A stretch of 16,029 nt of DNA from a virus. The notes below the pieces were generated by a model. That model made no database searches, was not told where the DNA came from, and worked only from the letters and a program-made list of their open reading frames with translations. Position numbers and translations under genes: made by a program. Positions 1 through 16,029 of the stretch are shown piece by piece. Location: UHGV virus genome UHGV-0264118; one strand, 5' to 3'. Each line of letters starts with the position of its first letter. Position 1 is the stretch's first letter.

Positions 1-107
1 TGGTACGAGCGCTGAACAAAATGACGAAAGCAGGTATGCCTGAAAGCGTGCGTATTGCCTGAAAACACAACCCGCTACGGGGGAGACTTACCCGAAATCT
101 GATTTAT

Positions 108-290
108 TCAACAAAGCCCCAGCGTTCCTACAAAACGGGAATTTCGGTCAATCATCCAGTAGCGACCAACTTTTATAGCGGGTGGGGCCATCATTTTCCC
201 TTGCGCGTATTTTTTCAGAACTCGCTCACTTGGTGCTAAGTCCCCAAATTCTTCTTTAGCCCAGTCCTGTAAAGTGATTAGTCGAGACAT
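108..290 (-). CDS. xis: Excisionase, lambda Xis-like
   Basis: 60-aa ORF. Motif ITLQDW...APPAIKVGRYW parallels lambda Xis LTLQEW...PPPVKDGREY. A strong Shine-Dalgarno (AGGAGGACAAATG on the minus strand) precedes the start. Lies at the left end of the early-left operon, where xis sits next to int. Confidence 0.6.
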   Translation of the reverse strand: MSRLITLQDWAKEEFGDLAPSERVLKKYAQGKMMAPPAIKVGRYWMIDRNSRFVGTLGLC

Positions 291-429
291 TTGTCCTCCT
301 CTTAGCTGCTGAGGGAGTTTGTGACCGATATATCTGACATGATATTAAGCTCATGGCAGGTACATCTCTTGACTGGTCATAGAGATAAATTTAATGCTGA
401 GAAATGCAGTATTGAATTTATCAATTTTT

Positions 430-669
430 CTATTTCCTGCGTATGGCACGTAACTTCTTAATGTGTTCTGCCGTTTCGATCTCTTCTGCTATCCGATCTG
501 CATCAGCTTTATTCACAGGTTCAAAGTCATGATTAAAGCGGAACATGCTGGCGATACATGTTCTGCCTTTTCGGATGTAGTGAACTTTGTTGTGGGTAGA
601 ACGCAGGATTTTGCAGGGAGTGCCGTGGTGGTCGACGTACCAGGTGTTAGGAAAAATGATTCTGAACAT
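430..669 (-). CDS. Hypothetical early-left-operon protein (79 aa)
   Basis: ORF with a GAGGTG Shine-Dalgarno about 7 nt upstream of the ATG on the minus strand. Same orientation as the neighbouring early genes. No family recognised. Confidence 0.45.
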   Translation of the reverse strand: MFRIIFPNTWYVDHHGTPCKILRSTHNKVHYIRKGRTCIASMFRFNHDFEPVNKADADRIAEEIETAEHIKKLRAIRRK

Positions 670-716
670 TTTTACACCTCAGTTGGACGATGTTGAAATT
701 TGCTGCTTTGAGGCCA

Positions 717-935
717 TCACAATCCCCATTGTTTGTTCTTAAGTTCGATCTCCTCCTGGCAACTTGCACAAGTCCGACAACCCTGAACGGCCAGGCGTCT
801 TCGTTCATCTATGGGATCGCCACACTTACAACAATGAGTGGCAGATATAGCCTGGTGGTTCAGACGACGCATTTTTATTGCTGTATTGCGCTGTAATTCT
901 TCGATTTCTGATGCTGAATCAATGATGTCTGCCAT
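717..935 (-). CDS. TraR/DksA-family C4 zinc-finger protein (lambda orf73-like)
   Basis: 72-aa ORF with paired Cys motifs (CCKCGD ... CRTCASC) in the TraR/DksA arrangement. Sits in the lambda ea/orf region between xis and exo. Confidence 0.65.
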   Translation of the reverse strand: MADIIDSASEIEELQRNTAIKMRRLNHQAISATHCCKCGDPIDERRRLAVQGCRTCASCQEEIELKNKQWGL

Positions 936-1033
936 CTTCCATTAATCCCTGAATTGTTGGTTAATACGCTTGAGGGTGAATGCGAATAATAAAAAAGGAG
1001 CCTGTAGCTCCCTGATGATTTTGCTTTTCATGT

Positions 1034-1249
1034 TCATCGCTCCTTAAAGAAGCCGTTTAACATGCCGATCGCCAGGCTTAAATGAGTCGGTGTGAATCCC
1101 ATCAGCGTTACCGTTTCGCGGTGCTTCTTCAGTACGCTACGGCAAATGTCATCGACGTTTTTATCCGGAAACTGCTGTCTGGCTTTTTTGATTTCAGAAT
1201 TAGCCTGACGGGCAATGCTGCGAAGGGCGTTTTCCTGCTGAGGTGTCAT
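1034..1249 (-). CDS. Small early-left protein, lambda orf61-like
   Basis: Predicted ORF 1034..1315. The ATG at 1249 (MTPQQENALRS...) is the likely true start. The upstream in-frame ATG at 1315 lies only 11 nt after the stop of the preceding gene and has no Shine-Dalgarno. Start is uncertain. Confidence 0.45.
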   Translation of the reverse strand: MTPQQENALRSIARQANSEIKKARQQFPDKNVDDICRSVLKKHRETVTLMGFTPTHLSLAIGMLNGFFKER

Positions 1250-1325
1250 TGAACAAGTCCCATGTCGGCAAGCATAAGCACACAGAATATGAAGCCCGCT
1301 GCCAGAAAAATGCATTCAGTGGTTG

Positions 1326-1517
1326 TCATACCTGGTCTCTCTCATCTGCTTCTGCTTTCGCCACCATCATTTCCAGCTTTTGTGAAAGGGATGCGGCTAA
1401 CGTATGAAATTCTTCGTCTGTTTCTACTGGTATTGGCACAAACCTGACTCCAATTTGAGCGAGGCTATGTGCCATCTCGATACTCGTTCTTAACTCAACG
1501 GGAGATGCTTTATGCAT
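1326..1517 (-). CDS. Small early-left protein, lambda orf63-like
   Basis: 63-aa ORF ([23 protein letters not shown]...), near-identical by recollection to lambda orf63. Overlaps the 3' end of the next ORF as in lambda. Confidence 0.6.
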   Translation of the reverse strand: MHKASPVELRTSIEMAHSLAQIGVRFVPIPVETDEEFHTLAASLSQKLEMMVAKAEADERDQV

Positions 1518-1678
1518 ACAGCCCCCCGTTTATTATTTATCTTCTCAGCCAGCCGCTGTGCTTTCAGTGGATTTCTGATAACAGAAAGGCCGGGAAATAC
1601 CCAGCCTCGCTTTGTAATGGAGTAGACGAAAGTGATCGCGCCTACCCGGATATTATCGTGAGGATGCGTCATCGCCAT
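1490..1678 (-). CDS. Small early-left protein, lambda orf60a-like
   Basis: 62-aa ORF (..[18 protein letters not shown]..) matching recollection of lambda orf60a. Its 5' end overlaps the exo stop by 10 nt. Start may be the ATG at 1672. Confidence 0.6.
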
Positions 1679-2349
1679 TGCTCCCCAAATACAAAACCAA
1701 TTTCAGCCAGTGCCTCGTCCATTTTTTCGATGAACTCCGGCACCATCTCGTCAAAACTCGCTATGTACTTTTCATCCCGCTCAATCACGACATAATGCAG
1801 GCCTTCACGCTTCATGCGCGGGTCATAGTTGGCAAAGTACCAGGCATCTTTTCGCGTCACCCACATGCTGTACTGCACCTGGGCCATGTAAGCCGATTTT
1901 ATTGCCTCAAAACCACCGAGCCGGAATTTCATGAAATCCCGGGAGGTAAACGGGCATTTCAGTTCAAGGCCGTTGCCGTCACTGCATAAACCATCTGGAG
2001 AGCAGGCGGTGCGCATACTTTCGTCGCGATAGATGATCGGGGATTCAGTAACATTCACGCCGGAAGTGAATTCAAACAGGGTTCTGGCGTCGTTCTCGTA
2101 CTGTTTTCCCCAGGCCAGCGCCTTAGCATTAACTTCCGGAGCCACACCGGTGCAAACCTCAGCCAGCAGGGTGTGGAAGTAGGACATTTTCATGTCAGGC
2201 CACTTCTTTCCTGAGCGGGGCTTTGCTATCACGTTGTGAACTTCTGAAGCGGTGATGACGCCGAGCCGTAATTTGTGCCATGCATCATCCCCCTGTTCGA
2301 CAGCTCTCACGTCGATCCCGGTACGCTGCAGGATAATGTCCGGTGTCAT
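1669..2349 (-). CDS. exo: Lambda-type 5'-3' exonuclease (Red-alpha)
   Basis: 226-aa translation ([65 protein letters not shown]...GEQWR) is essentially lambda Exo over its full length. Its start overlaps the bet stop (ATGA). Confidence 0.95.
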
Positions 2350-3131
2350 GCTGCCACCTTCTGCTCAGTGGCTTTCTGTTTCAGGAATCCAAGAGCTTTC
2401 ACTGCTTCGGCCTGTGTCAGTTCTGACGATGCGCGAATGTCGCGGCGAAATATCTGGGAACAGAGCGGCAATAAGTCGTCATCCCATGTTTTATCCAGGG
2501 CGATCAGCAGAGTGTTAATCTCCTGCATGGTTTCATCGTTAACCGGAGTGATGTCGCGTTCCGGCTGACGTTCTGCAGTGTATGCAGTATTTTCGACAAT
2601 GCGCTCGGCTTCATCCTTGTCATAGATACCAGCAAATCCGAAGGCCAGACGGGCACACTGAATCATGGCTTTATGCCGTAACATCCGTTTGGGATGCGAC
2701 TGCCACGGTCCGGTGATTTCTCTGCCTTCGCGGGTTTTGAATGGTTCGCGGCGGCATTCATCCATCCACTCGGTAACGCAGATCGGATGATTACGGTCCT
2801 TGCGGTAAATCCGGCATGTACAGGATTCATTGTCCTGCTCAAAGTCCATGCCATCAAACTGCTGGTTTTCATTGATGATGCGGGACCAGCCATCAACGCC
2901 CACCACCGGAACGATGCCGTTCTGCTTATCAGGGAAGGCGTAAATTTCTTTCGTCCACGGATTAAGGCCGTACTGGTTGGCGACGATCAACAATGCGATG
3001 AACTGCGCATCGCTGGCATCACCTTTAAATGCCGTCTGGCGAAGAGTGGTGATCAGTTCCTGTGGGTCGACAGAATCCATGCCGACACGTTCAGCCAGCT
3101 TCCCTGCCAGCGTTGCGAGTGCTGTACTCAT
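2346..3131 (-). CDS. bet: Red-beta single-strand annealing protein
   Basis: 261-aa translation ([82 protein letters not shown]...) matches lambda Bet. A GAGGT Shine-Dalgarno lies upstream. Confidence 0.95.
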
Positions 3132-3136
3132 CCGTT

Positions 3137-3433
3137 TTATACCTCTGAATCAATATCAACCTGGTGGTGGGCAATAGTTTCAACCATGTACCGGATGTGT
3201 TCTGCCATGCGTTCCTGAAACTCAACATCGTCATCAAACGCACGGGTAATGGCTTTTTTGCTGGCCCCGTGGCGTTGCAAATGATCGATGCATAGCGATT
3301 CAAACAGGTGCTGAGGCAGGCCTTTTTCCATGTCGTCTGCCAGTTCTGCCTCTTTCTCTTCACGGGCGATCTGCTGGTAGTGACGCGCCCAGCTCTGAGC
3401 CTCAAGACGATCCTGAATGTAATAAGCGTTCAT
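3137..3433 (-). CDS. gam: Gam (RecBCD inhibitor), short 98-aa form
   Basis: Translation [60 protein letters not shown]... matches lambda GamS. A good Shine-Dalgarno (CAGGAGTTCAGCCATG) precedes the start. Confidence 0.9.
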
Positions 3434-3508
3434 GGCTGAACTCCTGAAAATGGCTGTGAAAATATCGCCCGCGAAATGCCAGGCTGATTAGGAAAACAGG
3501 AAAGGGGA

Positions 3509-3799
3509 TTAGTGATTCAGGCCGTTACCGCGTCCGTCGAGAAAAACTTCCACGAGCAAATCACGGGTATAAGTGCGCTCGATGCCGCGATGCAGATATA
3601 GCCGTCCGCGTAAATTAGCTGATGCAGTCCAGGTACCATCTTTGTGTTTGACCAGCATTCCTGGCATGACCGCACCTCGATTAACGGTCTGCGTTCCGTA
3701 ATGTTGATGAACCATAAAAACTCCTGCCCGTAAGCTGGGCTGCTGAACATATAGAGACTTCTGCGCGTATTCAGGCGGTGGATGGCCGCCGGTTGTCAT
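3509..3799 (-). CDS. Hypothetical protein in the kil/cIII position
   Basis: Predicted 136-aa ORF (3509..3919) begins at a TTG. The first ATG ([11 protein letters not shown]...) at 3799 gives 96 aa with a weak GAGG upstream. GC-rich, no hydrophobic segment, no cIII-like motif. Family not recognised. Confidence 0.35.
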
Positions 3800-4273
3800 A
3801 ACTAAGCCGCCTCGTTGAAGCGACTGAGGTATGAGGTGTTGAGTTGATTTCAGCTGGTCACACCGACGTTCACACGTCCGTTTCACCCCTCGCACTCCCC
3901 GTAGCCTGCTGAAATTCAAGCTGCAGATCTAAGCGGTCATCGCAACGGTGAAGCGGTAAATCAGAAGATTGCCGCATTCCTGTGCCGTTGTGATGGATTT
4001 ATAATACCTATTGCTATTAATCATATCAATACGTATGGGTATCAATCGATAGCATTTGTTGTTATGCTGTTGATACTGAAAAGAATTTAATGTTGAGGTT
4101 TTTTGTGACATTCGACTCAAAATGGATTTTGCAATTAAATAACCAATTGATAACAATGAAAACATCACGGAGAACTAGATAGGCCAAATTACTTGCCACG
4201 AAGATAGTTGTAAGCGTTGATAACAATGGTATTGAGGAGGGATACCCCCGACAATTGCGTCAGGGGGGAGGGA

Positions 4274-4654
4274 TTATTGGGCTTTAATGTAATTTTTCAA
4301 CTTTGCAGTTTGCTCTACAGCGCTAGGAATGCATCCAAACATATTTGCGCATGAGGTTTGAACAACAATTTCGTTCTTATCGTTTCCTAAAGGTGTTTTT
4401 ACAACCTGATATCCAAGCACGGCACTATTTCCAATAGGAGTGTATGTGGAAATTACCGTTTCATCTGCCATCTGAATTTTCCAACCAGAATTCATTGCTA
4501 TCCAAGCTTTGGCTCTCGACCAATATGTATCGCATTGCTCTTTACCTTGACAGTAAACTGGTTGTTGAGCTTGTGCGGCAATTTGGGGATCTATTTTCTG
4601 AGCACATCCAGAGATGCTAATCAGAATAGCTGCTGTAACGAATAGTTTTCTCAT
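4274..4654 (-). CDS. Lipoprotein, likely lysogen-expressed moron in the rexAB position
   Basis: ORF MSMRKLFVTAAILISISGC|AQ... has an N-terminal signal peptide and lipobox (ISGC). The ATG at 4654 has an AAGGAA Shine-Dalgarno 6-7 nt upstream. Lies 48 nt downstream of, and co-oriented with, the repressor gene. AT-rich relative to neighbours. Confidence 0.6.
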   Translation of the reverse strand: MRKLFVTAAILISISGCAQKIDPQIAAQAQQPVYCQGKEQCDTYWSRAKAWIAMNSGWKIQMADETVISTYTPIGNSAVLGYQVVKTPLGNDKNEIVVQTSCANMFGCIPSAVEQTAKLKNYIKAQ

Positions 4655-4702
4655 TGACATTTCCTTTGTTTTGAATATACAACAAATAAATTGGCAAAAA
4701 AA

Positions 4703-5395
4703 TTATCCGTGTTTTCTATATGTCTGCGGCATGCTTCCAATGACTTTACCGAAGATGAACACCCGGTTCATCTCGTCTTTCTCGATCGGGTCCCACGGTG
4801 AGTAGCTCTTGTTATCAGAGATAACCAGCAGCTTATCCTTCATCATTTGCAGGCGCTTTACATGGGCTGTGTCGTCGTACAGAAACGCATAGATACCATC
4901 ACCGTCGAAAGATTTAACAGTGATATCAACGAACAAAAGATCACCTGGTTCGATCGTTCCTGACATGCTGTCACCGCGTACGTTAATGATGCGGATATTT
5001 TCTGCCTTCCTGCCATCGAACATGTGACGAGCATCGTCAAACGAGTACTCAACCGAGCGTAGAACTTCTACAAACTCACGATTGATGACACCCGGCCCGG
5101 CACTGACTTCTATATCAAGAACGTCAATCTTGAAGTATTTGGAATGGCTGACAGCAGGCTTCCCTGATTGTTGACCGTCATTTCTCATCGGGCCTATGCC
5201 TGATGAGAGCCACTCTGTTCGAACACCCAATGCATTAGCTATTTCAACAATTTTTGTTGAGCCGCGCGCGTTGCCGCTTGTCAGTCTCCAGATTGTGGGT
5301 TGAGCTACGCCAGACGCCTTTGCAAGAGCGCCTTGAGACATTCCAGATTGTTCCATCGCTAGGTTTAAGCGATCAGCAAGAGTTTCTTTTTTCAT
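4703..5395 (-). CDS. cI: CI-type prophage repressor (XRE-family HTH plus S24 LexA-like autopeptidase domain)
   Basis: HTH segment MSQGALAKASGVAQPTIWRLTSG. Ala-Gly cleavage site (EVSAGPG). S24 catalytic motifs GDSM and VKRL. The ATG at 5395 (MKKETLADRL) has no Shine-Dalgarno, consistent with a leaderless PRM-type transcript. The predicted TTG start at 5431 is less likely. Confidence 0.85.
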   Translation of the reverse strand: MKKETLADRLNLAMEQSGMSQGALAKASGVAQPTIWRLTSGNARGSTKIVEIANALGVRTEWLSSGIGPMRNDGQQSGKPAVSHSKYFKIDVLDIEVSAGPGVINREFVEVLRSVEYSFDDARHMFDGRKAENIRIINVRGDSMSGTIEPGDLLFVDITVKSFDGDGIYAFLYDDTAHVKRLQMMKDKLLVISDNKSYSPWDPIEKDEMNRVFIFGKVIGSMPQTYRKHG

Positions 5396-5505
5396 AAGTT
5401 TTAATTTATACGCTTGCGTATTGATGGTCAAAACACGTTTTGCTATTGATTGGGTTAATACGCATTGCTATTATCTATTCATTGCAATACCAATAGGAAT
5501 TGATA
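5396..5505. promoter_or_regulatory. Divergent repressor/cro promoter-operator region (PRM/PR-like)
   Basis: Intergenic region between divergent cI and cro. Near-palindrome ATACGC-TT-GCGTAT at 5408-5421 and related ATACGCATTGCTAT at 5457-5470. Candidate PR: TTGATT (5446-5451), 17-nt spacer, TATTAT (5469-5474). Candidate PRM on the minus strand: TTGACC then about 16 nt then ATAAAT, ending just upstream of the leaderless ATG. Confidence 0.5.
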
Positions 5506-5733
5506 ATGACAAATCAAACCATTCAACTCGCAATCAGTATTACAGGTAGTCAAAAACGACTGGCAGATCTCTGCGGTGTAGCCCAACCCACGGTTTGGCG
5601 TTGGCTACACGGTGGCGGAATTGATGCCCGCTATGTAATGAAAATTGTCTCAGCCACTGGTGGAAAGATTAAACCAGCAGATATTCGTCCCGACCTCGCA
5701 CCATTGTTTAACGTGAGTAATTCTTCCGCCTAA
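5506..5733 (+). CDS. Cro/YdaS-like small HTH regulator
   Basis: 75-aa ORF from the ATG at 5506 (predicted TTG at 5500). AGGA Shine-Dalgarno 7 nt upstream. HTH segment SQKRLADLCGVAQPTVWRW. Divergent from the repressor. Confidence 0.7.
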   Translation: MTNQTIQLAISITGSQKRLADLCGVAQPTVWRWLHGGGIDARYVMKIVSATGGKIKPADIRPDLAPLFNVSNSSA

Positions 5734-5763
5734 TCTGCGGAGTTAACTGATAAGGCAATTACT

Positions 5764-6303
5764 ATGCAACCAATTACATACCAACAGACTAGCGGATTTA
5801 CCCCGGCTGCGGTGATAAATCGTTCTCAAACAAAACAGGCGCCAGGCCACGAAAAAATCCGTGATGCCGTTCGCGCCTGGTCGGCTGCAGATAATCAGGA
5901 TGTTGTTGCCGCACTCATTGTGAATGAGTATCGGGAGCAGGGCGGCGGCACCATCGATTTCCCTGATGATGTCAGCCGTGCACGCCAGAAGCTGTTCCGC
6001 TTCCTCGATAACAAATTCGATTCTGAAAAATACCGAAATAACGTGCGTGAACTGACCCCGGCAATTCTGGCGGTACTACCGCTGGAATATCGCGGTTACC
6101 TGGTTGAGCAGGATAGCTTCATGGCCAGGTTGGCTGAAATGGAAAAGGAACTCAGTGAGGCAAAACAGGCTGTCATTCTCAACGCACCACGCCACCAGAA
6201 ACTGAAGGAAATTGGTGAAGGTATTGTATCGATGTTTCGTGTGGACCCAGATCTGGCTGGTCCATTGATGGCGATGGTTACTACCATGCTGGGGGCGATA
6301 TGA
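5764..6303 (+). CDS. YdaT-like or CII-like regulatory protein (family assignment tentative)
   Basis: 179-aa ORF directly downstream of the cro-like gene, in the position of cII/ydaT. Motifs EYREQGGG and LTPAILAVLP recall YdaT-family proteins, from recollection only. Confidence 0.5.
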   Translation: MQPITYQQTSGFTPAAVINRSQTKQAPGHEKIRDAVRAWSAADNQDVVAALIVNEYREQGGGTIDFPDDVSRARQKLFRFLDNKFDSEKYRNNVRELTPAILAVLPLEYRGYLVEQDSFMARLAEMEKELSEAKQAVILNAPRHQKLKEIGEGIVSMFRVDPDLAGPLMAMVTTMLGAI

Positions 6304-6389
6304 CAGGTTCAGAAATGGCGAAAGCCGGTCTGCTGGAACAGAACCGACTTTCAGGTGCAAATCGTAACACACTCATTGCGGGAGGAATT

Positions 6390-7319
6390 ATGGCAAACAC
6401 TGCTGAGATATTCAATTTTCCAGTGCCGGATGCGGCACAAAAGGAGCCGCGCGTGGCAGATCTCGATGATGGTTATACGCGCATTGCAAATGAGTTGCTG
6501 GAAGCTGTGATGCTGGCCGGATTAACACAGCACCAGCTTCTGGTCTTCCTGGCTGTCATGCGCAAAACATATGGCTTTAATAAAAAACTGGATTGGGTGA
6601 GCAACGAGCAACTGTCCGGATTGACCGGGATATTACCGCACAAGTGTTCTGCTGCAAAAAGTGTTCTGGTAAAGCGTGGGATTTTGATTCAGAGCGGGCG
6701 GAATATCGGTATTAATAATGTGGTCAGTGAATGGTCAACATTACCCGAATCAGGTAAGAAAAATAAAGTTTACCTGAAAGAGGTAAATTTACCTGAATCA
6801 GGTAAGAAAAGTTTACCCAAATCAGGTAAAGGCGTTTACCCGAATCAGGTAAACACAAAAGACAAACTAACAAAAGACAATATAAAACCTTTTTCGTCCG
6901 AGAATTCTGGCGAATCCTCTGACCAACCAGAAAACGATCTTCCTGTGGTGAAACCAGATGCTGCAATTCAGAGCGGCAGCAAGTGGGGGACAGCAGAAGA
7001 CCTGACCGCCGCAGAGTGGATGTTTGACATGGTGAAGACCATCGCACCATCAGCCAGAAAACCGAATTTTGCAGGGTGGGCTAACGATATCCGCCTGATG
7101 CGTGAACGTGACGGACGTAACCACCGCGACATGTGCGTGCTTTTCCGCTGGGCATGCCAGGACAACTTCTGGTCCGGTAACGTGCTAAGTCCGGCCAAAC
7201 TCCGCGACAAGTGGACCCAACTCGAAATCAACCGTAACAAGCAACAGGCAGGCATGATAGCCAGCAAACCAAAACTCGACCTGACAAACACTGACTGGAT
7301 TTACGGGGTGGATTTATGA
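6390..7319 (+). CDS. O: Replication initiator O (lambda O-like)
   Basis: From the ATG at 6390 (MANTAEIFNFPVP..., GGAGG Shine-Dalgarno 4 nt upstream). The C-terminal ~150 aa (..YSSENSGESSDQPENDLPVVKPDAAIQSGSKWGTAEDLTAAEWMFDMVKTIAPSARKPNFAGWANDIRLMRERDGRNHRDMCVLFRWACQDNFWSGNV..) is essentially lambda O. The N-terminal iteron-binding domain is related but divergent. Confidence 0.9.
   Translation: MANTAEIFNFPVPDAAQKEPRVADLDDGYTRIANELLEAVMLAGLTQHQLLVFLAVMRKTYGFNKKLDWVSNEQLSGLTGILPHKCSAAKSVLVKRGILIQSGRNIGINNVVSEWSTLPESGKKNKVYLKEVNLPESGKKSLPKSGKGVYPNQVNTKDKLTKDNIKPFSSENSGESSDQPENDLPVVKPDAAIQSGSKWGTAEDLTAAEWMFDMVKTIAPSARKPNFAGWANDIRLMRERDGRNHRDMCVLFRWACQDNFWSGNVLSPAKLRDKWTQLEINRNKQQAGMIASKPKLDLTNTDWIYGVDL
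6741..6853. repeat. Replication origin iterons inside the O gene
   Basis: Five copies of about 17 bp with consensus TACC(C/T)GAATCAGGTAA(G/A) at approximately 6742, 6771 (degenerate), 6790, 6814 and 6837. Followed by an A-rich tract at 6854-6890, as in ori-lambda. Confidence 0.75.
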
Positions 7320-8017
7320 AAAACATCGCCGCACAGATGGTTAACTTTGACCGTGAGCAGATGCGTCGGATCGCCAACAACATGCCGGAACAGTACGACG
7401 AAAAGCCGCAGGTACAGCAGGTAGCGCAGATCATCAACGGTGTGTTCAGCCAGTTACTGGCAACTTTCCCGGCGAGCCTGGCTAACCGTGACCAGAATGA
7501 ACTGAACGAAATCCGCCGCCAGTGGGTGCTGGCTTTTCGGGAAAACGGGATCACCACAATGGAACAGGTTAACGCTGGAATGCGCGTAGCCCGTCGGCAG
7601 AATCGACCATTCCTGCCATCACCCGGGCAGTTTGTCGCCTGGTGCCGGGAAGAAGCATCCGTTACCGCCGGGCTGCCAAACGCCAGCGAGCTGGTTGATA
7701 TGGTTTACGAGTATTGCCGGAAGCGCGGGCTGTATCCGGATGCAGAGTCTTATCCGTGGAAATCAAACGCGCACTACTGGCTGGTTACCAACCTGTATCA
7801 GAACATGCGGGCCAATGCGTTGACTGACGCGGAATTACGGCGCAAGGCTGCCGATGAACTGTCCTGTATGACCGCACGAATTAACCGTGGTGAGGCTATA
7901 CCTGAACCAGTAAAACAACTTCCTGTCATGGGCGGTAGACCTCTAAATCGTGCACAGGCTCTGGCGAAGATCGCAGAAATCAAAGCTAAGTTTGGGCTGA
8001 AAGGAGCAAGGGTATGA
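7316..8017 (+). CDS. P: Replication protein P (DnaB helicase loader)
   Basis: 233-aa translation MKNIAAQMVNFDREQMRRIANNMPEQYDEKPQVQQVAQIINGVFSQLLATFPASLANRDQNEL... is near-identical to lambda P. Start overlaps the O stop (ATGA). Confidence 0.95.
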   Translation: MKNIAAQMVNFDREQMRRIANNMPEQYDEKPQVQQVAQIINGVFSQLLATFPASLANRDQNELNEIRRQWVLAFRENGITTMEQVNAGMRVARRQNRPFLPSPGQFVAWCREEASVTAGLPNASELVDMVYEYCRKRGLYPDAESYPWKSNAHYWLVTNLYQNMRANALTDAELRRKAADELSCMTARINRGEAIPEPVKQLPVMGGRPLNRAQALAKIAEIKAKFGLKGARV

Positions 8018-8316
8018 CGGGCAAAGAGGCAATTATTCATTACCTGGGGACTCATAAGAAATTCTGTGCGCAGGACGTTGCCGCGGTAACAGGCGCAACG
8101 GTAACCAGCATAAATCAGGCTGCGGCTAAAATGGCACGGGCAGGTCTTCTGGCTATCGAAGGTAAGGTCTGGCGAACGGTGTATTACCGGTTTGCTACCA
8201 GAGAAGAACGGGAAGGAAAGGTGAGCACGAATCTGATTTTTAAGGAGTGTCGCCAGAGTGCCGCGATGAAACGGGTATTGAGGGTATATAAAAGAACATC
8301 AATGGGTACACAATGA
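8014..8316 (+). CDS. ren: Ren protein
   Basis: 100-aa translation MTGKEAIIHYLGTHKKFCAQDVAAVTGATVTSINQAAAKMARAGLLAIEGKVWRTVYYRFATREEREGK... matches lambda Ren. Start overlaps the P stop. Confidence 0.85.
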   Translation: MTGKEAIIHYLGTHKKFCAQDVAAVTGATVTSINQAAAKMARAGLLAIEGKVWRTVYYRFATREEREGKVSTNLIFKECRQSAAMKRVLRVYKRTSMGTQ

Positions 8317-8383
8317 TGAAACAGGTGAGTTGAGTTCAAACTGTAGTACAATTCTCTCCAGTTTGAACAGGAAAGAATATTCT

Positions 8384-8716
8384 ATGAACCCTTATATTTA
8401 TCTTGGTGGTGCAATACTTGCAGAGGTCATTGGTACAACCTTAATGAAGTTTTCAGAAGGTTTTACACGGTTATGGCCATCTGTTGGTACAATTATTTGT
8501 TATTGTGCATCATTCTGGTTATTAGCTCAGACGCTGGCTTATATTCCTACAGGGATTGCTTATGCTATCTGGTCAGGAGTCGGTATTGTCCTGATTAGCT
8601 TACTGTCATGGGGACTTTTCGGCCAACGGCTGGACCTGCCAGCCATTATAGGCATGATGTTGATTTGTGCCGGTGTGTTGGTTATTAATTTATTGTCACG
8701 AAGCACACCACATTAA
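8384..8716 (+). CDS. emrE: SMR-family multidrug efflux transporter EmrE
   Basis: 110-aa translation from the ATG at 8384 (MNPYIYLGGAILAEVIGTTLMKFSEGFTRLWPSVGTIICYCASFWLLAQTLAYIPTGIAYAIWSGVGIVLISLLSWG...) matches E. coli EmrE with its four transmembrane helices. The predicted ORF starts earlier at 8330. Confidence 0.95.
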   Translation: MNPYIYLGGAILAEVIGTTLMKFSEGFTRLWPSVGTIICYCASFWLLAQTLAYIPTGIAYAIWSGVGIVLISLLSWGLFGQRLDLPAIIGMMLICAGVLVINLLSRSTPH

Positions 8717-8747
8717 AAATAATTTGTTTCTAAACGACTAAAATATG

Positions 8748-8780
8748 GAGGCTCTTATATTTATATGAGCCTCGTTTTAT
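8748..8780 (+). terminator. Rho-independent terminator downstream of emrE
   Basis: Perfect 7-bp stem GAGGCTC (8748-8754) / GAGCCTC (8767-8773) with a 12-nt loop, followed by GTTTTATGCTTTTT. Confidence 0.6.
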
Positions 8781-8972
8781 GCTTTTTGTTAATGTCTTTA
8801 TTTTTTTATGTATTCTTTTGTGCTTTCAAGATTATGGCGTAAGAAAATTGCAATACGATTATTGTTGTATATTCAAGATAATGTGACCTTAATTGTCTTT
8901 TTAAATAAAAATTAAACAAAAATTATATCCCACCACTAAGGTTTATAAAAGCATACGTTAGCAGGTGTCACC

Positions 8973-10499
8973 ATGAAAAAAGCCATAGCATATATGCGAT
9001 TTTCATCACCAGGTCAGATGTCTGGCGACTCATTAAACCGACAGAGAAGACTTATTGCTGAATGGTTAAAGGTAAATAGTGATTATTATCTTGATACCAT
9101 AACATATGAAGATTTAGGATTAAGTGCATTCAAAGGAAAGCATGCACAATCAGGAGCTTTTTCGGAATTTTTAGATGCTATAGAGCATGGTTATATATTG
9201 CCAGGAACTACATTGTTAGTTGAAAGTCTGGACAGACTTTCAAGAGAAAAAGTCGGTGAAGCGATTGAACGTCTGAAATTGATTTTGAATCACGGTATTG
9301 ATGTTATAACTCTTTGCGACAATACAGTCTATAATATTGACTCTTTGAATGAGCCATATTCATTAATAAAAGCCATACTTATAGCACAAAGGGCAAATGA
9401 AGAAAGCGAGATAAAGTCAAGTCGGGTTAAATTATCATGGAAGAAAAAACGGCAGGATGCACTGGAATCAGGTACGATTATGACGGCGTCTTGTCCGAGA
9501 TGGCTCTCCTTAGATGACAAAAGAACGGCTTTTGTTCCAGACCCCGACAGGGTGAAAACTATTGAGCTAATTTTTAAACTCAGGATGGAAAGGCGCTCAT
9601 TGAATGCAATAGCCAAGTATTTAAATGATCATGCTGTAAAGAATTTCTCAGGAAAAGAAAGTGCATGGGGACCTTCTGTAATTGAAAAATTATTAGCGAA
9701 TAAAGCTCTGATAGGTATATGCGTACCTTCATATCGTGCAAGAGGTAAAGGAATAAGTGAAATCGCTGGCTATTATCCCAGAGTCATATCAGATGATTTG
9801 TTTTACGCTGTACAGGAAATTCGGTTGGCACCTTTTGGTATTAGCAATAGTAGCAAAAATCCTATGTTGATAAATCTACTTCGAACAGTTATGAAGTGCG
9901 AGGCTTGTGGTAATACCATGATTGTTCATGCGGTATCTGGAAGTTTGCATGGCTATTATGTTTGTCCGATGAGAAGACTGCATCGATGTGACAGGCCATC
10001 AATAAAGAGAGATTTGGTTGATTATAATATCATTAATGAGTTGCTTTTTAATTGTAGTAAAATCCAACCAGTTGAAAACAAGAAAGATGCTAATGAAACT
10101 TTAGAGTTGAAAATTATTGAGCTCCAGATGAAAATTAATAATTTAATTGCTGCATTATCTGTTGCGCCTGAAGTTACCGCTATAGCAGAAAAAATCAGAG
10201 TATTAGATAAGGAATTACGAAGGGCTTCTGTATCATTAAAAACTTTGAAGAGTAAAGCGGTGAGTTCACTTGGTGATTTTCATGCTATTGACTTAACCAG
10301 TAAAAATGGGCGAGAGCTATGTCGTACACTTGCCTATAAAACATTCGAAAAAATCATAATCAATACAGATAATAAAACCTGTGATATCTATTTTATGAAT
10401 GGCATTGTTTTTAAACACTATCCTTTAATGAAAACAATATCCGCCCAGCAGGCGATAAGTACTCTCAAATATATGGTTGATGGTGAGGTTTATTTTTGA
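8973..10499 (+). CDS. ybcK: Large serine recombinase (YbcK-like)
   Basis: 508 aa. N-terminal resolvase-type catalytic motif AIAYMRFSSPGQ (Y-x-R-x-S nucleophile). C-terminal Cys cluster (CEACGN...CPMRRLHRCD) and a coiled-coil segment typical of large serine recombinases. AGGTG Shine-Dalgarno upstream. Markedly AT-rich gene. Confidence 0.85.
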   Translation: MKKAIAYMRFSSPGQMSGDSLNRQRRLIAEWLKVNSDYYLDTITYEDLGLSAFKGKHAQSGAFSEFLDAIEHGYILPGTTLLVESLDRLSREKVGEAIERLKLILNHGIDVITLCDNTVYNIDSLNEPYSLIKAILIAQRANEESEIKSSRVKLSWKKKRQDALESGTIMTASCPRWLSLDDKRTAFVPDPDRVKTIELIFKLRMERRSLNAIAKYLNDHAVKNFSGKESAWGPSVIEKLLANKALIGICVPSYRARGKGISEIAGYYPRVISDDLFYAVQEIRLAPFGISNSSKNPMLINLLRTVMKCEACGNTMIVHAVSGSLHGYYVCPMRRLHRCDRPSIKRDLVDYNIINELLFNCSKIQPVENKKDANETLELKIIELQMKINNLIAALSVAPEVTAIAEKIRVLDKELRRASVSLKTLKSKAVSSLGDFHAIDLTSKNGRELCRTLAYKTFEKIIINTDNKTCDIYFMNGIVFKHYPLMKTISAQQAISTLKYMVDGEVYF

Positions 10500-10610
10500 G
10501 TAATAATCACTTTTTCAACCGTGCTATAGTAAGAAAGTTAGGTAAGTACAATAAAATTATCTATCCTGAACGAAGCGTCCTGAGCTATGGTTTTACTATA
10601 GAGACTGCCA

Positions 10611-10934
10611 ATGGATGCTGGCGTTCTCGTTCTAGCAGTTCAACAATACCCAATCACAAAACAATTCACTGATAACGAACTTTGCACACTCGCCTGGTTA
10701 TGGCGAGCAGGGAATGTGATGTTAATTACCTACCAGAACGTTACTCCTCTTCTTCAGGTTGCGGAGCATCGTGAAGCTGGTCGCTTCACTTCTATCGAGC
10801 AAGAATATCCCCAGATACTCAATAAGGCACAGGCAATCCTTGCCAGAGAAACGGCACATGTAAAATTCCGGCCGTGGCAGGATGATAAGTGGAGTCGAGT
10901 TTTGCCGCATTTACGTTCGGATCGATTACAGTAG
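10611..10934 (+). CDS. Hypothetical protein (107 aa), coding status uncertain
   Basis: ORF with a weak ribosome-binding site. No recognisable family. Flanked upstream by a 9-bp inverted repeat. Confidence 0.3.
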   Translation: MDAGVLVLAVQQYPITKQFTDNELCTLAWLWRAGNVMLITYQNVTPLLQVAEHREAGRFTSIEQEYPQILNKAQAILARETAHVKFRPWQDDKWSRVLPHLRSDRLQ

Positions 10935-11395
10935 ATTCCAATTAACAATGAGAAACACATAGCCACCCCGTGGTATTGAAACCATATAATGTTGGATTTG
11001 AAAACAGATCTTTTTCCATGTATTAATAACTACATCCCCGCGAGTGATTCAAAAAGGAGGGCCCAATTTTGTCCGAGTTTTTGTATTCCCCCGCATGCCG
11101 CTGCGGAGCACTACATCTGAGTGTCTGACTAGGGGATAAAATTAGACTGGATAGTGAGAAGAAAGTGGCGTGCTAGGCTGTGCCGAGTGCTACCAGTACA
11201 CCCTGGGGGTGTGCAGCTTTCGCCGAGACTGTAGTGGGTATCGGTTAATGCACGAAAAACCGAGAGGTCAGACAACCAATTTGCCGTAGGATTGTTTCCG
11301 GTGCGATACCGGTGTACTAACTGAAAGCAATGCGAAAAAGCATAAACTCGGTCCTTCAGTCGCCCTACACACTATTTACTAAGAAGGGCTAAAGC

Positions 11396-11752
11396 ATGGA
11401 TACAATTATCACATGGATGGGAGATCGTCTGTTGGGGTGGATAACAAACAAATCCGATCTGCGGCAGAGGGCAATCACTGGATTAACTCCTGCGATTTAT
11501 TCAACAATTTTATATACTGAAAAATTAAAACGTGGTGAGCCTAATAACCCAAACGAAGAAGAAAAACTTTATAGGCTTTGGTATGAAGCGTCTTCCCAAG
11601 TCGTAGACTTTGATCGAGAGCTGGCTAAAAGATGTTTAGATAAATCAGAATATTGGCTTCATTCTGAATTATATAGCCCTGAGAAAGTTGGAGAGCTAAA
11701 CATTTCTTTGGTTGGTATGAAGGCAACGCTTGAAGGAATAAAGCACAATTAA
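11396..11752 (+). CDS. Hypothetical protein (118 aa)
   Basis: AT-rich ORF (MDTIITWMGDRLLGWITNKSDLRQRAITGL...) with an AAGGG Shine-Dalgarno about 9 nt upstream. No recognised family. Preceded by a ~430 bp non-coding GC-richer region. Confidence 0.45.
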   Translation: MDTIITWMGDRLLGWITNKSDLRQRAITGLTPAIYSTILYTEKLKRGEPNNPNEEEKLYRLWYEASSQVVDFDRELAKRCLDKSEYWLHSELYSPEKVGELNISLVGMKATLEGIKHN

Positions 11753-11841
11753 AACCTTTGATTTGCGATAATCAACTCGCCATAATCATGTCATCGGAGC
11801 CTGAACAACTCCGGTGACTTCTGCGCTAAACGGGGACGTTT

Positions 11842-11943
11842 ATGCGCACACACAATCCAAACTCTCTTCTCCCTCCACAGATGCAGAAATGCACCTGCGA
11901 TATATTGTATCCAGCGTTTGACCTCTGCGGAGGTGAAGCGTGA
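11842..11943 (+). CDS. ylcH: Small protein YlcH-like (33 aa)
   Basis: Translation [33 protein letters not shown]. Its stop overlaps the GTG start of ybcN (GTGA). Below the 60-aa cutoff of the ORF track, found by manual translation. Confidence 0.5.
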
Positions 11944-12395
11944 ATCTCCCACAAGATGGCATCAAATTACATCGCGGTAACTTCACCGCTATCGGTCGGC
12001 AGATCCAGCCTTATCTGGAGGAGGGCAAATGCTTTCGCATGGTGCTTAAACCGTGGCGTGAGAAACGCAGTCTTTCCCAGAATGCACTCAGCCACATGTG
12101 GTACAGCGAAATCAGTGAATACCTCATCAGCAGGGGTAAAACGTTCGCTACTCCAGCTTGGGTAAAAGATGCTCTCAAACACACATATCTCGGTTATGAA
12201 ACCAAAGACCTGGTTGATGTCGTAACCGGTGATATCACCACTATCCAGTCGTTACGCCATACCTCCGATCTTGATACCGGAGAGATGTATGTCTTCCTGT
12301 GTAAGGTTGAAGCCTGGGCGGTGAATATTGGCTGCCACCTGACTATTCCGCAGAGCTGCGAGTTCCAGCTGCTCCGCGACAAGCAGGAGGCGTAA
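11940..12395 (+). CDS. ybcN: NinB/Orf-family recombination protein (YbcN-like)
   Basis: 151 aa from a GTG start with a GGAGGTG Shine-Dalgarno 5 nt upstream. Motif [19 protein letters not shown] parallels lambda NinB RSLDQNRKLW. Confidence 0.8.
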
Positions 12396-12565
12396 TGGCT
12401 ACACCGCTTATTCGTGTCATGAACGGACACATCTACAGAGTACCAGATCGTCGTAAGCGTAAACCGGAGCTGAAGCCTTCCGAAATACCAACACTGCTCG
12501 GATATACCGCCAGCCTGGTTGATAAAAAATGGTTGCGATTGGCAGCAAGGAGGAATCATGGCTGA
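12395..12565 (+). CDS. ninE: NinE-like small protein (56 aa)
   Basis: Manual translation [56 protein letters not shown]. Start overlaps the ybcN stop (TAATG). The 3' end overlaps the ybcO start. Confidence 0.7.
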   Translation: MATPLIRVMNGHIYRVPDRRKRKPELKPSEIPTLLGYTASLVDKKWLRLAARRNHG

Positions 12566-12848
12566 TTTGAGAAAAGCAGCGCGTAGTCGGGAATGCCAGG
12601 TAAGAATCCCTGGCGTATGTAATGGCAACCCTGAAACGTCTGTACTGGCACATATCCGGCTGACTGGATTGTGCGGCACCGGTACCAAACCGCCAGACCT
12701 GATTGCCACCATTGCATGTTCTGCCTGCCACGACGAAATCGACCGCCGCACACATTTTGTCGATGCTGCATATGCAAAAGAATGCGCGCTGGAAGGTATG
12801 GCGAGAACACAGGTTATCTGGCTGAAAGAGGGGGTTATTAAGGCGTGA
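12558..12848 (+). CDS. ybcO: YbcO-like Cys-rich putative nuclease (96 aa)
   Basis: From the ATG at 12558 ([64 protein letters not shown]...). The predicted ORF starts upstream at 12519 inside ninE. Confidence 0.8.
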
Positions 12849-13207
12849 ATACCTACAGCATCACATTACCCTGGCCTCCGAGCAATAATCGCTATTACCG
12901 CCATAATCGCGGGCGCACGCACGTCAGCGCAGAGGGGCAGGCATACCGCGATAACGTCGCCCGAATCATTAAAAACGCAATGCTGGATATCGGCCTGGCT
13001 ATGCCTGTGAAAATCCGCATTGAGTGCCACATGCCGGATCGCCGTCGCCGTGACCTGGATAATCTGCAAAAAGCCGCTTTTGACGCACTCACTAAAGCAG
13101 GTTTCTGGCTGGATGATGCTCAGGTCGTTGATTACCGCGTTGTGAAGATGCCTGTTACCAAAGGTGGGAGGCTGGAACTGACCATCACCGAAATGGGGAA
13201 TGAATGA
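12845..13207 (+). CDS. rusA: Holliday-junction resolvase RusA
   Basis: 120-aa translation [104 protein letters not shown]... matches E. coli RusA. Confidence 0.95.
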
Positions 13208-13344
13208 TGTTTGAGTTTTATATGGCAGAACGTCTTCGCCACCGCTGGGGGCGTCTGCGCTTATATCGTTTCCCCGGTTCTGTTTTGACCGATTACCGAA
13301 TACTGAAGAATTACGCCAAAACCCTGACAGGAGCAGGAGTATGA
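13204..13344 (+). CDS. ylcG: YlcG-like small protein (46 aa)
   Basis: Manual translation [46 protein letters not shown]. Start overlaps the rusA stop (ATGA). Confidence 0.55.
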
Positions 13345-13429
13345 AGTCAGAGATAACAATCAACTAATACTGTTTCGTTGATTTTTGCTTGTAATTGGCG
13401 TTCTGGTCTGATTTTTGTGGAGTAAGTTG

Positions 13430-13813
13430 ATGCGTGATATTCAGATGGTTCTTGAGCGTTGGGGAGCGTGGGCGGCTAATAATCATGAAGATGTGACCTG
13501 GTCGTCCATTGCCGCCGGTTTTAAGGGATTAATTACTTCAAAAGTAAAATCTCGCCCGCAATGTTGTGACGATGACGCGATGATCATTTGCGGGTGCATG
13601 GCCCGTCTGAAAAAGAACAACAGCGATTTGCACGATTTATTAGTAGATTATTATGTAGTCGGTATGACATTCATGTCACTGGCAGGTAAGCATTGCTGCT
13701 CTGATGGTTATATCGGGAAAAGGTTACAGAAGGCTGAGGGCATAATTGAAGGGGTGTTAATGGCATTAGATATCCGGTTAGAGATGGATATCGTTGTTAA
13801 TAACTCTAATTAA
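13430..13813 (+). CDS. quuD: Late-gene antiterminator Q, phage 82 type (QuuD-like)
   Basis: 127 aa from the ATG at 13430 ([34 protein letters not shown]...[16 protein letters not shown]...). GGAGTAAG Shine-Dalgarno upstream. The predicted TTG start at 13415 is less likely. Confidence 0.85.
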
Positions 13814-13846
13814 TACGCCAATTATTTACTAAAAGTTATTAAAAAT

Positions 13847-13865
13847 GGGGCGTTGAAACGCCCCC
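13847..13865 (-). terminator. GC hairpin with a flanking T-tract on the minus strand (candidate nmpC terminator or element of the late regulatory region)
   Basis: Stem GGGGCG (13847-13852) / CGCCCC (13859-13864) with loop TTGAAA. On the minus strand it is followed by ATTTTTAATAA. Confidence 0.4.
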
Positions 13866-13952
13866 AAAAATAAAGGGTAATATATAACAGAAGGTTTGTA
13901 TAGTTAGAAGCAAGGTTGTGCTTCTAAAGGAAGTGGCTTGAGGGAGCCACTT

Positions 13953-13990
13953 ATATGTTGGGGAGGCAAAGCCTCCCACAACATATCTTT
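13953..13990 (+). terminator. Candidate tR'-like intrinsic terminator downstream of Q
   Basis: Stem of about 11 bp, GTTGGGGAGGC (13957-13967) / GCCTCCCACAAC (13971-13982), loop AAA, followed by ATATCTTTT on the plus strand. Lies about 145-170 nt downstream of the Q stop. Confidence 0.45.
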
Positions 13991-14001
13991 TAGTAATCAA
14001 A

Positions 14002-15084
14002 TTAGAACTGGTAAACCATACCTACAGCAACGATATCATCGGTAGCAACGCCAGATGCTTTCGTGAAATCGCTCTTATCAATCAGGTTGATTTTGTAGTC
14101 AACAAAAGTGGACATATTTTTGTTGAAGTAATAGGTTGCACCTACATCAACATATTCAACCAGGTCCTGATCACCCCAAACACCCAAGTCTTTTCCTTTA
14201 GAATGCAGGTAAGCAACGGATGGACGCAGGCCGAAGTCGAACTGATATTGTGCAACAGCTTCGAAGTTTTGTGCTTTGTTGGCAATATGGTTATTACCAA
14301 AAACAGTCATGTTCTGGGTTTCAGAATAGGTGGTGGCCAGATAGATGTTGTTCGCATCATATTTCAGACCAGCTGCCCATACTTCAGCATTTTGACCAGA
14401 AGCATTCAGACCGTTGTTACCGTAGATAACCTGATTATTAGTGCGATCAGATTTAGCATAGGTTGCACCCACGCCGAATCCTTCATACTCATAAGTAGTT
14501 GAGAAACCGAAACCATCGCCATTAGCTTCAGTTACTTCATTTCGGTCATTTTTGCCCTGATACTGAGCTGCAAAGTTCAGGCCATCAACCAGACCAAAGA
14601 AGTCGTTGTTACGATAAGTTGCAACACCTGTGGTGCGACCAGTCATGAATACATCTGTTTGGGTCCAGGTATCGCCACCGAATTCTGGCAGAACGTCAGT
14701 CCACGCACCGATGTCGTATGCTACACCGTAGTTACGGCCGTAATCGATTGAGCCGTAGTCACCGAATTTCAGGCCTGCAAATGCAAGACGGGTTTTGTCT
14801 TTGGAGGAACCTTGAGATTCAGCGCGGTTGCCTTTGAATTCATATTCCCACTGACCGAAACCAGTCAGTTGATCGTTGATTTGGGTTTCACCTTTGAAGC
14901 CAAGACGGGCATAAGTAGTATCACCATCATCTGCATCATTAGAGGAGAAGTAGTGCTTAGCATTAACTTTCCCGTACAGATCCAGCTTGTTACTGTCTTT
15001 ATTATAAATTTCAGCTGCCTGAGCAGACATCGCCATCAGTACTGATGCAGCTACAGCAGAAATTGCCACTGTTAATTTTTTCAT
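14002..15084 (-). CDS. nmpC: Outer-membrane general porin (OmpC/OmpF family), NmpC-like
   Basis: 360 aa. Signal peptide [23 protein letters not shown]|AEIYNKD. Beta-barrel porin hallmarks and C-terminal ...VAVGMVYQF. Convergent with Q, between Q and the lysis genes. Confidence 0.9.
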
Positions 15085-15672
15085 CGTGAGCCCTTTTTTT
15101 TGAACTATTATTAAAAAATGATGTCACTGCGCGATAAATATTCATCTAATCAATGTGATTATTTCAAGATGTAAGTTTTAGTTTCTCATTTAATTTGTGA
15201 AGTAGATCTCTATTTTTATCTGAACTTTTTCTATCGAAACCTATTTATGGCTCTTATTTGAACAAAAATAAACCTATTAGCTAATTTATATTAATGGCTG
15301 TTATTTATGGGGGTTCTATAATTCGGCAGTTTAATTTAAATCAACTAAAAATAACGTCTGAAATTATTTATTGGTTATTTGTTGAGGTTTTCTTATGTAT
15401 TTGTGGTGGAGTTTTGAACACTCGGTAGCATTCTCATAAATATCATTCAGTGGTTTACGTACGTAAAAAATTGGTTATGCTGTTAAGAGTGGTTACTTCG
15501 TCACACAGCTTAAACCCGCCGTCGAGCTGGTTTTTCCATTTTTTGAGTCTCGATATTAGCTGATAACTCAATACCTGAGTTATTCACTGACTCCGAGTCT
15601 GTTACGTTTCTGCTTTTTTGCGATACGTTGTATTCCCTCAATTTACACCCGCTTTGTCTGCGAGGTGGGGTT

Positions 15673-15888
15673 ATGAAATCCATGGATAAGTTAACAACGG
15701 GTATCGCCTATGGCACCTCAGCAGGTAGTGCCGGTTACTGGTTTTTACAGCTGCTCGATAAAGTCACGCCCTCACAGTGGGCAGCAATAGGTGTGCTGGG
15801 TAGCCTGGTATTTGGCCTGCTGACGTACCTGACAAACCTTTATTTCAAGATTAAAGAAGATAAGCGCAAGGCTGCGAGAGGTGAATAA
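15673..15888 (+). CDS. essD: Class II holin, phage 21 S-type (EssD-like), dual-start
   Basis: 71 aa from the ATG at 15673 ([71 protein letters not shown]). MKSM dual-start motif. GAGGTGGGG Shine-Dalgarno upstream. Confidence 0.9.
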
Positions 15889-16029
15889 TGCCTCCATCAT
15901 TACGAAAAGCCGTTGCTGCTGCTATTGGTGGCGGAGCAATTGCTATAGCATCAGTGTTAATCACTGGCCCAAGTGGTAACGATGGTCTGGAAGGTGTCAG
16001 CTACATACCATACAAAGATATTGTTGGTG
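15888..16029 (+). CDS. rrrD: SAR endolysin (phage 21 R-type lysozyme), N-terminal fragment cut by the window end
   Basis: Translation [47 protein letters not shown]... with a Gly/Ala-rich signal-anchor-release segment. Start overlaps the holin stop (TAATG). Confidence 0.85.

Follow-up and report, generated by a model that had tools for sequence, protein, structure and literature searches.

The window, the whole stretch of 16,029 nucleotides of virus genome UHGV-0264118, carries a run of small co-oriented open reading frames (ORFs) on its minus strand, close to its left end. In the ORF listing for window positions 1 to 4000, five of these lie at 430-669, 717-935, 1034-1315, 1326-1517, and 1490-1678. 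A first-pass annotation of this DNA had placed five such genes between xis and exo, and all of them are present there, on the minus strand. The same listing also holds a sixth ORF, of 31 aa, at 942-1037 (-), which is additional to the five first listed. The genes upstream of the block, all on this strand too, are exo (1669-2349), bet (2346-3131), gam (3137-3433), and one of the Kil family (3509-3919). The remainder of the window is that of a mosaic lambdoid prophage, with an S24 repressor and a YdaS-like Cro as a divergent pair, a YdaT/CII-like protein, and replication genes; a Ren-like protein, an SMR (EmrE-type) transporter, a large serine recombinase, and a Q-like antiterminator are found elsewhere in it. 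The features of the segment and of its two borders, in window coordinates, are the following.

1 to 118, strand not assigned: terminal 118 bp of IS903/IS903B (IS5 family), inserted in xis; identical (100%) to over 5000 plasmid records that carry the annotation IS5-like IS903/IS903B transposase
119 to 290, minus strand: excisionase gene (xis) with its 3' end lost; phrog_629, 3e-27 over residues 1-57
384 to 422, strand not assigned: AT-rich inverted repeat with a 16-bp stem, between the stop of the DUF4222 gene and the start of xis; found by scan
430 to 669, minus strand: gene for a DUF4222 protein, 79 aa; DUF4222, 1.4e-19; phrog_285, 8e-37
717 to 935, minus strand: orf73 homolog, TraR/DksA-family C4 zinc finger, 72 aa; zf-dskA_traR (PF01258), 1.3e-08; phrog_54, 3.7e-25
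745 to 755, strand not assigned: mosaic junction at which lambda homology ends, inside orf73 at about codon 62; sliding identity goes from 0.93-1.0 to 0.3-0.5 at window position ~750 (lambda ~30428)
995 to 1013, minus strand: terminator-like hairpin inside the 31-aa ORF, with an 8-bp stem, a 3-nt loop, and a U-run; terminator scan; equivalent to lambda 30673-30691
1034 to 1315, minus strand: orf61, 93 aa; phrog_303, 1.7e-42; no Pfam match above threshold
1326 to 1517, minus strand: orf63 homolog, 63 aa; DUF1382, 3e-31; phrog_292
1490 to 1678, minus strand: orf60a homolog, 62 aa; DUF1317, 4.9e-38; phrog_1998, 8e-33; collinear with lambda orf60a
1586 to 1608, minus strand: hairpin rich in G+C with a U-rich tract after it, within orf60a; terminator scan; equivalent to lambda 31265-31287
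1669 to 2349, minus strand: exo (lambda exonuclease), upstream boundary of the cluster; YqaJ, 6e-30; collinear with lambda exo

Each of the five products first listed matches a conserved protein family far above chance in Pfam or PHROG. The matches of the Orf60a homolog to DUF1317 (129.2 bits, model positions 1-59 of 60) and of the Orf63 homolog to DUF1382 (107.8 bits, positions 1-60 of 60) are full length, and the phrog_303 match spans the Orf61 product from end to end (residues 1-93). At the exo end of the block, the orf60a ORF overlaps the stop of exo by 10 nt and the start of orf63 by 28 nt. NCBIfam has no model for DUF4222, Orf61, Orf60a, or the 31-aa ORF, and searches of PDB sequences gave no match for Orf60a, Orf61, or the DUF4222 profile.

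Identity to the lambda exo-xis region and state of the prophage

When the reverse complement of window positions 300-1700 was aligned to phage lambda (NC_001416), we found that window 1700-751 and lambda 31379-30429 are 97.4% identical at the DNA level, with 25 differences in 951 columns. This stretch spans the end of exo, orf60a, orf63, orf61, the 31-aa ORF, and orf73 up to codon ~61; in lambda, orf73 is a 73-aa ORF left unannotated in NC_001416. The conserved lambdoid block of five genes at this place has been given as orf60a-orf63-orf61-orf73-ea22 (PMC8614690). In the window, orf60a, orf63, orf61, and orf73 lie downstream of exo in the expected order; there is no Ea22-like ORF after orf73, and the DUF4222 gene comes directly next. 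[quoted passage not shown]

We also found the block to be widespread. The whole 1.5-kb segment, including the DUF4222 gene, is present at 95-99% identity in the cultured phages PhiR47_2, 4A7, 1H12, Perceval, and phage 21, and at 100% identity in several E. coli chromosomes. Matches occur in 3706 of the 5426 complete E. coli genomes, with 1574 of these covering at least 80% of the query, and the exact protein sequences appear in public E. coli records on up to 1000 or more contigs. The block is a textbook, experimentally characterized module that most E. coli genomes carry; the literature already covers the region, its genes, and how its zinc-finger protein works, the sequences are common in E. 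coli, and the block holds nothing new. The practical value is in correct annotation, that is, in labeling orf60a, orf63, orf61, orf73, and the DUF4222 gene. The PhiR47_2 record lacks the TraR gene and shows wrong-strand ORFs where the DUF4222 gene lies.

At the left border, the xis ORF is called at 108-290, but xis DNA occupies only 119-290, leaving 57 native codons versus the 78 aa (237-nt xis) of intact relatives; E. coli matches around xis cover only 119-330. Since IS903B cuts xis, this prophage copy may be unable to excise, and such a failure may limit when the cluster matters. The insertion, together with a relative that has 100% identical cluster DNA and an integrase split by an IS3 element, could be taken to mean that the prophage is decaying and the block in it inert cargo, whose ORFs are intact only because the decay is recent. 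We consider this unlikely, because all six ORFs are intact, the same DNA occurs at 97-99% identity in the inducible, plaque-forming PhiR47_2, 4A7, 1H12, and phage 21, and exo, bet, gam, kil, and the repressor, replication, and Q-like genes in the window are intact as well. Recent decay of this prophage would be compatible with the functional assignment of the genes and does not contradict it.

The TraR/DksA-type zinc-finger protein

In a three-way alignment, the 72-aa product of 717-935 has 89% identity to lambda Orf73 and 32% to TraR of the F plasmid. It scores 35.2 bits against the Pfam zf-dskA_traR model (cutoff, 24.9), the PHROG family that it matches (phrog_54) is described as a "DksA-like zinc-finger protein," and it matches the TraR chains of the solved RNA polymerase complexes 5W1S and 6N57 at ~3e-05. 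In NCBI, the exact sequence goes under the name TraR/DksA family transcriptional regulator, although its score against the NCBIfam model TIGR02419 (C4_traR_proteo) falls below the cutoff (53.6 versus 59.7 bits). The arrangement of cysteines had led the first-pass annotation to compare this protein to TraR/DksA-family proteins and lambda Orf73, and the identity to Orf73, the Pfam and phrog_54 matches, and the alignment of all four cysteines bear this out, with zinc ligands C35, C38, C56, and C59 at the positions of TraR C37, C40, C58, and C61.

Residues that contact RNA polymerase in TraR are also retained. The protein starts MADIIDSA, and the acidic tip residues on which that annotation had let its TraR assignment depend are present as D3 and D6; together with A8, they are invariant with lambda Orf73 and TraR. 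These three positions make up the DxxDxA motif (TraR D3, D6, A8), a motif that extends to the active-site region of RNA polymerase (PMC9239242). Residues R46 and R47 are likewise invariant in the alignment and equivalent to the TraR R48/R49 pair, which contacts the rim helices and beta-prime Si3 (PMC9239242). The differences from lambda Orf73 are the substitutions E37K and V49A and a divergent C terminus, in which the last ~11 residues differ (tails EEIELKNKQWGL versus EDLELISKQRGSK) because the mosaic junction falls inside orf73. In TraR, the counterpart of this C-terminal segment is the helix in contact with beta-Si1; the window segment has the right length and keeps E64 and K68, with residues 61-72 otherwise unlike those of lambda Orf73.

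The function of lambda Orf73 is known from biochemical and in vivo work. The purified protein competes with DksA for RNA polymerase (PMC9239242, Gopalkrishnan et al.), inhibits rrnB P1 with an IC50 of ~50 nM without ppGpp in a manner that needs D3 and D6, and activates amino-acid promoters (PMC9239242). Expressed from pL, it lowers rRNA and rpsT transcription in vivo; it also slows host growth and raises burst size and phage yield (PMC9239242). As judged from the 89% identity and the conserved motifs, the window homolog should likewise be an RNA polymerase secondary-channel regulator, and we expect this allele to be functional because it is very common in public records.

Orf60a, Orf63, Orf61, and the 31-aa ORF

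The Orf63 homolog differs from the lambda protein at 3 of 63 residues and matches PDB entry 8DSB at 2e-33, the NMR structure of dimeric lambda Orf63, a protein described as pro-lytic (PMC10869804). Orf60a and Orf61 are nonessential, and their deletion alters lysogenization, induction, and, in phage Phi24B, adsorption (PMC6213356); phenotypes have also been published for the exo-xis region as a whole (PMC3824215, PMC8614690).

Next to the proteins of Stx phages, lambda Orf61 "appears to be truncated" (PMC8614690). We found an A-run of the lambda reference to be longer by one A at lambda 30868, between window positions 1189 and 1190, and lambda Orf61 is truncated, with its frame shifted after residue ~54, because of this extra base. 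The window gene has the same 93-aa full-length form as Orf61 of the Stx phages Phi24B and 933W, from which it shows only point differences and for which a homeodomain-like fold has been predicted (PMC8614690). A possible internal start (ATG, 1249-1251) would give a product of 71 aa versus 93 aa from 1315, and NCBI calls the 71-aa form in some genomes. The NCBI name "ZapA" for Orf61 homologs was rejected, since the Pfam ZapA model gives 15.9 bits versus a threshold of 23.8.

The 31-aa ORF has no family match in Pfam or PHROG. Its protein sequence is identical in lambda, and public annotations of E. coli contain the exact sequence. It is probably the 31-aa "orf2313" that ribosome profiling has revealed (PMC8614690).

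The DUF4222 protein

The 79-aa product of 430-669 had been recorded at first pass as having no recognizable family, which is incorrect. In addition to the phrog_285 match, its match to Pfam DUF4222 (PF13973) scores 69.8 bits versus a cutoff of 27 and covers the whole model (positions 1-53 of 53), and the gene is preceded by a GAGGTG Shine-Dalgarno sequence. We found 154 homologs across the Enterobacteriaceae (Escherichia, Salmonella, Citrobacter, Enterobacter, and Klebsiella) and the gene itself in 60 phage records, usually as the last or near-last early-left gene before xis and int. The TraR gene is its direct neighbor here and also in ST101-KPC2phi6.1, a Klebsiella phage whose DUF4222 protein is only 47% identical. 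A confident AlphaFold2 model built from 32 homologs (pLDDT 87.8) predicts a five-stranded SH3/Tudor-like barrel at residues ~10-52 followed by a long C-terminal helix at 54-78; a Foldseek search with this model returned no match at E ≤ 0.001.

The only studied member of the DUF4222 family is RgdR (ECs1581), a product of CP-933C, a P4-like/PICI element of O157:H7; it is an activator of LEE1 and a repressor of motility, and its binding to DNA is nonspecific (PMC3378721, PMC10877973, PMC6092414). We took the RgdR sequence from the Sakai genome, confirmed the DUF4222 domain in it, and found it 30% identical to the window protein in an alignment of 47 residues (E 3e-05). The shared domain would allow the window gene to be a lysogenic-conversion regulator of the same kind, expressed from the prophage and reprogramming host genes, such as those for motility or virulence, instead of acting in phage development. 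However, the RGD tripeptide from which RgdR takes its name (residues 20-22, of which residue 20 is important for activity [PMC3378721]) is absent from the window protein, which has P7-N8-T9 at the aligned positions. The window gene also lies inside a repressed early-left operon next to xis rather than in a moron-like unit that has a promoter of its own, with no promoter-like site found upstream, and RgdR itself occupies a different context, upstream of a primase gene on its element. With the motif missing and the identity at 30%, we disfavor an RgdR-like function and regard it as quite unlikely. That the DUF4222 protein is a Tudor-like RNA polymerase-binding modulator is a hypothesis to which we give only a slim chance. 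DUF4222 is the one component of the block without a mechanism and the only place in it where further work could teach something.

The first-pass annotation had also hinted at an anti-defense role for the region, and small, variable early genes beside recombination genes are a typical site for such functions; the segment left of orf73 is mosaic, with DUF4222 here, ea22/ea8.5 in lambda, and ea22/DUF551/DUF4222 in BP-4795. That the cluster is mainly an anti-defense or host-takeover island whose small proteins neutralize bacterial immune systems instead of tuning host transcription or the lysis-lysogeny decision is nevertheless very unlikely, as four of the five genes are highly conserved and not variable (97% DNA identity to lambda), the published phenotypes concern the lysis-lysogeny decision, those of deletion and overexpression being in lysogenization, induction, and host growth (PMC3824215, PMC6213356, PMC9239242), and PADLOC, a library that covers defense and not anti-defense, gave no meaningful match among the six products, with one sub-threshold chance match.

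Hairpins and transcription

The scans identified two terminator-like hairpins inside the block. The stronger one, at 1586-1608, folds as RNA at -19.3 kcal/mol (z -3.81), and none of 200 shuffled sequences was as stable. Plasmid pKD46 carries lambda 31088-33241, including tL3; because this insert contains tL3, we take the hairpin at 1586-1608 to be, most likely, the lambda tL3 terminator. The hairpin at 995-1013 is weaker (-10.2 kcal/mol, z -1.9), and its sequence is identical in lambda. The inverted repeat at 384-422 folds at -18 kcal/mol on the plus strand (z -4.35) and at -8.8 kcal/mol on the minus strand (z -2.33).

The early leftward promoter, its operators, and an N-like antiterminator were not located in the window, where the consensus scans performed at chance level. 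The repeated sequence ATTGTTATCAA at 4147 and 4217, met in the same context, is not significant, since 26 of 200 shuffles did as well. From synteny with lambda alone, we infer early leftward expression of the cluster, and by the same reasoning antitermination of early leftward transcription would be required for its distal genes.

Discussion

The position and content of the block suggest how it could act during infection or induction. As the distal end of an early leftward operon, downstream of kil-gam-bet-exo, it would, by synteny with lambda, be read from the early leftward promoter shortly after the phage infects or is induced, and the transcript would have to pass at least one internal hairpin terminator, the putative tL3 equivalent inside orf60a. 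The Orf73 homolog is predicted to bind host RNA polymerase in the secondary channel and to need no ppGpp for this, as with TraR and lambda Orf73. In such a complex, the N-terminal helix would put D3 and D6 near the active site, and the four-cysteine zinc module and R46/R47 would hold the protein on the beta-prime rim helices and Si3. As the predicted outcome, rRNA and ribosomal-protein promoters would be inhibited, some amino-acid promoters would be activated, the host would grow more slowly, and the phage yield would rise. Going by the published phenotypes, Orf60a, Orf63, and Orf61 are nonessential modulators of the lysis-lysogeny decision. The DUF4222 product would be a small barrel-plus-helix protein whose studied relative, RgdR, alters host transcription.

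Among the closest points of comparison for single proteins of the block are TraR, lambda Orf73, and RgdR. Lambda Orf73 and TraR are proteins of 72-73 aa with a DxxDxA motif, a CxxC-17-CxxC zinc module, and an RR pair, all of which are kept in the window protein. RgdR and the window DUF4222 protein are both small and basic, share the DUF4222 domain, and are encoded on mobile elements, but RgdR has 99 aa versus 79 aa for the window protein, and the two differ in genetic context.

At the level of the whole block, the exo-xis region of lambda (30396-31351) has orf60a, orf63, orf61, and orf73 in the same order and on the same strand as the window, and it shares with the window the 31-aa ORF and both internal hairpins. 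Beyond orf73 the two diverge: a single DUF4222 gene in the window takes the place of lambda ea22, ea8.5, and lambdap35, and the window xis, besides being cut by the insertion sequence, differs in type from lambda xis. In BP-4795, ea22 and DUF551 genes stand between the TraR gene and the DUF4222 gene. Phage 21, 4A7, 1H12, PhiR47_2, and related members of Lambdavirus carry the same mosaic variant as the window, lacking ea22, but have intact xis and int genes.

An IS903/IS903B element truncates the excisionase gene

Sequence features at the left end of the window:
1-118, terminal 118 bp of IS903/IS903B (IS5 family), at the left end of the window and within xis
384-422, inverted repeat (AT-rich; stem of 16 bp), located between the stop codon of the DUF4222 gene and the start of xis
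995-1013, intrinsic terminator-like hairpin with a U-run, canonical in appearance, inside a conserved 31-aa open reading frame (942-1037)

We found that the excisionase gene, xis, is joined to the end of the IS element at 118/119. Because this element inserted into xis, the excisionase reading frame (108-290) is reduced to 57 native residues followed by 3 IS-derived codons, compared to 78 aa in intact relatives, and this copy of the prophage may have lost the ability to excise. The inverted repeat between the DUF4222 gene (430-669) and xis has a predicted folding energy of -18 kcal/mol (z, -4.35) as plus-strand RNA, a far better fold than that of the coding minus strand, and is followed on the plus strand by a T-run.

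A mosaic junction with phage lambda lies within orf73

We also found a mosaic recombination junction with lambda at approximately 745 to 755, near codon 62 of orf73, the TraR/DksA-family zinc-finger gene (717-935). Since the junction is inside the gene, the C-terminal tail of Orf73 in this phage lineage differs from that of lambda. The 31-aa reading frame that contains the terminator-like hairpin is placed between orf61 and orf73, and the same hairpin sequence is present in lambda at 30673-30691. The element under conservation here may be the peptide, the hairpin, or both.

In the record of the cultured phage PhiR47_2 (PV340567.1, positions 1529-1904), two plus-strand "hypothetical proteins" are annotated over the DUF4222 gene, and the TraR/orf73 gene has no call in the GenBank record of this closest phage, which is an annotation error. 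Names attached to other proteins of this block are also misleading: the solved Orf63 chain (PDB 8DSB) is labeled "Xis (Excision72)," the exact Orf60a sequence is called "cruciferin" in two records, and Orf61 homologues carry the name "cell division protein ZapA," which rests on a sub-threshold Pfam similarity.

A mosaic lambdoid prophage makes up the remainder of the window

The region from 3434 to 16029 is a mosaic lambdoid prophage that encodes Kil, an S24 repressor, a YdaS-like Cro, a YdaT/CII-like protein, O/P-type replication proteins, and a Ren-like protein, in a layout similar to that of DLP12. It also contains the following:
4274-4660, 128-aa protein (phrog_16082) with a lipoprotein-like N-terminal signal sequence, judged by eye
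8330-8716, SMR/EmrE-type efflux gene
8973-10499, large serine recombinase (508 aa)
13415-13813, Q-like antiterminator
14002-15084, minus strand, porin gene, assigned by eye

Upstream of the leftward early genes, ATTGTTATCAA occurs in two exact copies (4147-4157 and 4217-4227) 70 bp apart, which could be operator half-sites. This copy number is not significant, as it was reached in 26 of 200 shuffled sequences, and the repressor/cro intergenic region contains no copy of ATTGTTATCAA.

A single base separates lambda Orf61 from its full-length relatives

Truncation of lambda Orf61 is on record in the literature (PMC8614690); no statement of a single-base cause was found in the text consulted. When compared to positions 1189-1190 of the window, the A-run of orf61 in the lambda reference (NC_001416) has one extra A, at position 30868. 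As a result of this extra base, lambda Orf61 is a truncated protein of 61 aa, whereas the protein is 93 aa long in this prophage and in Stx phages.
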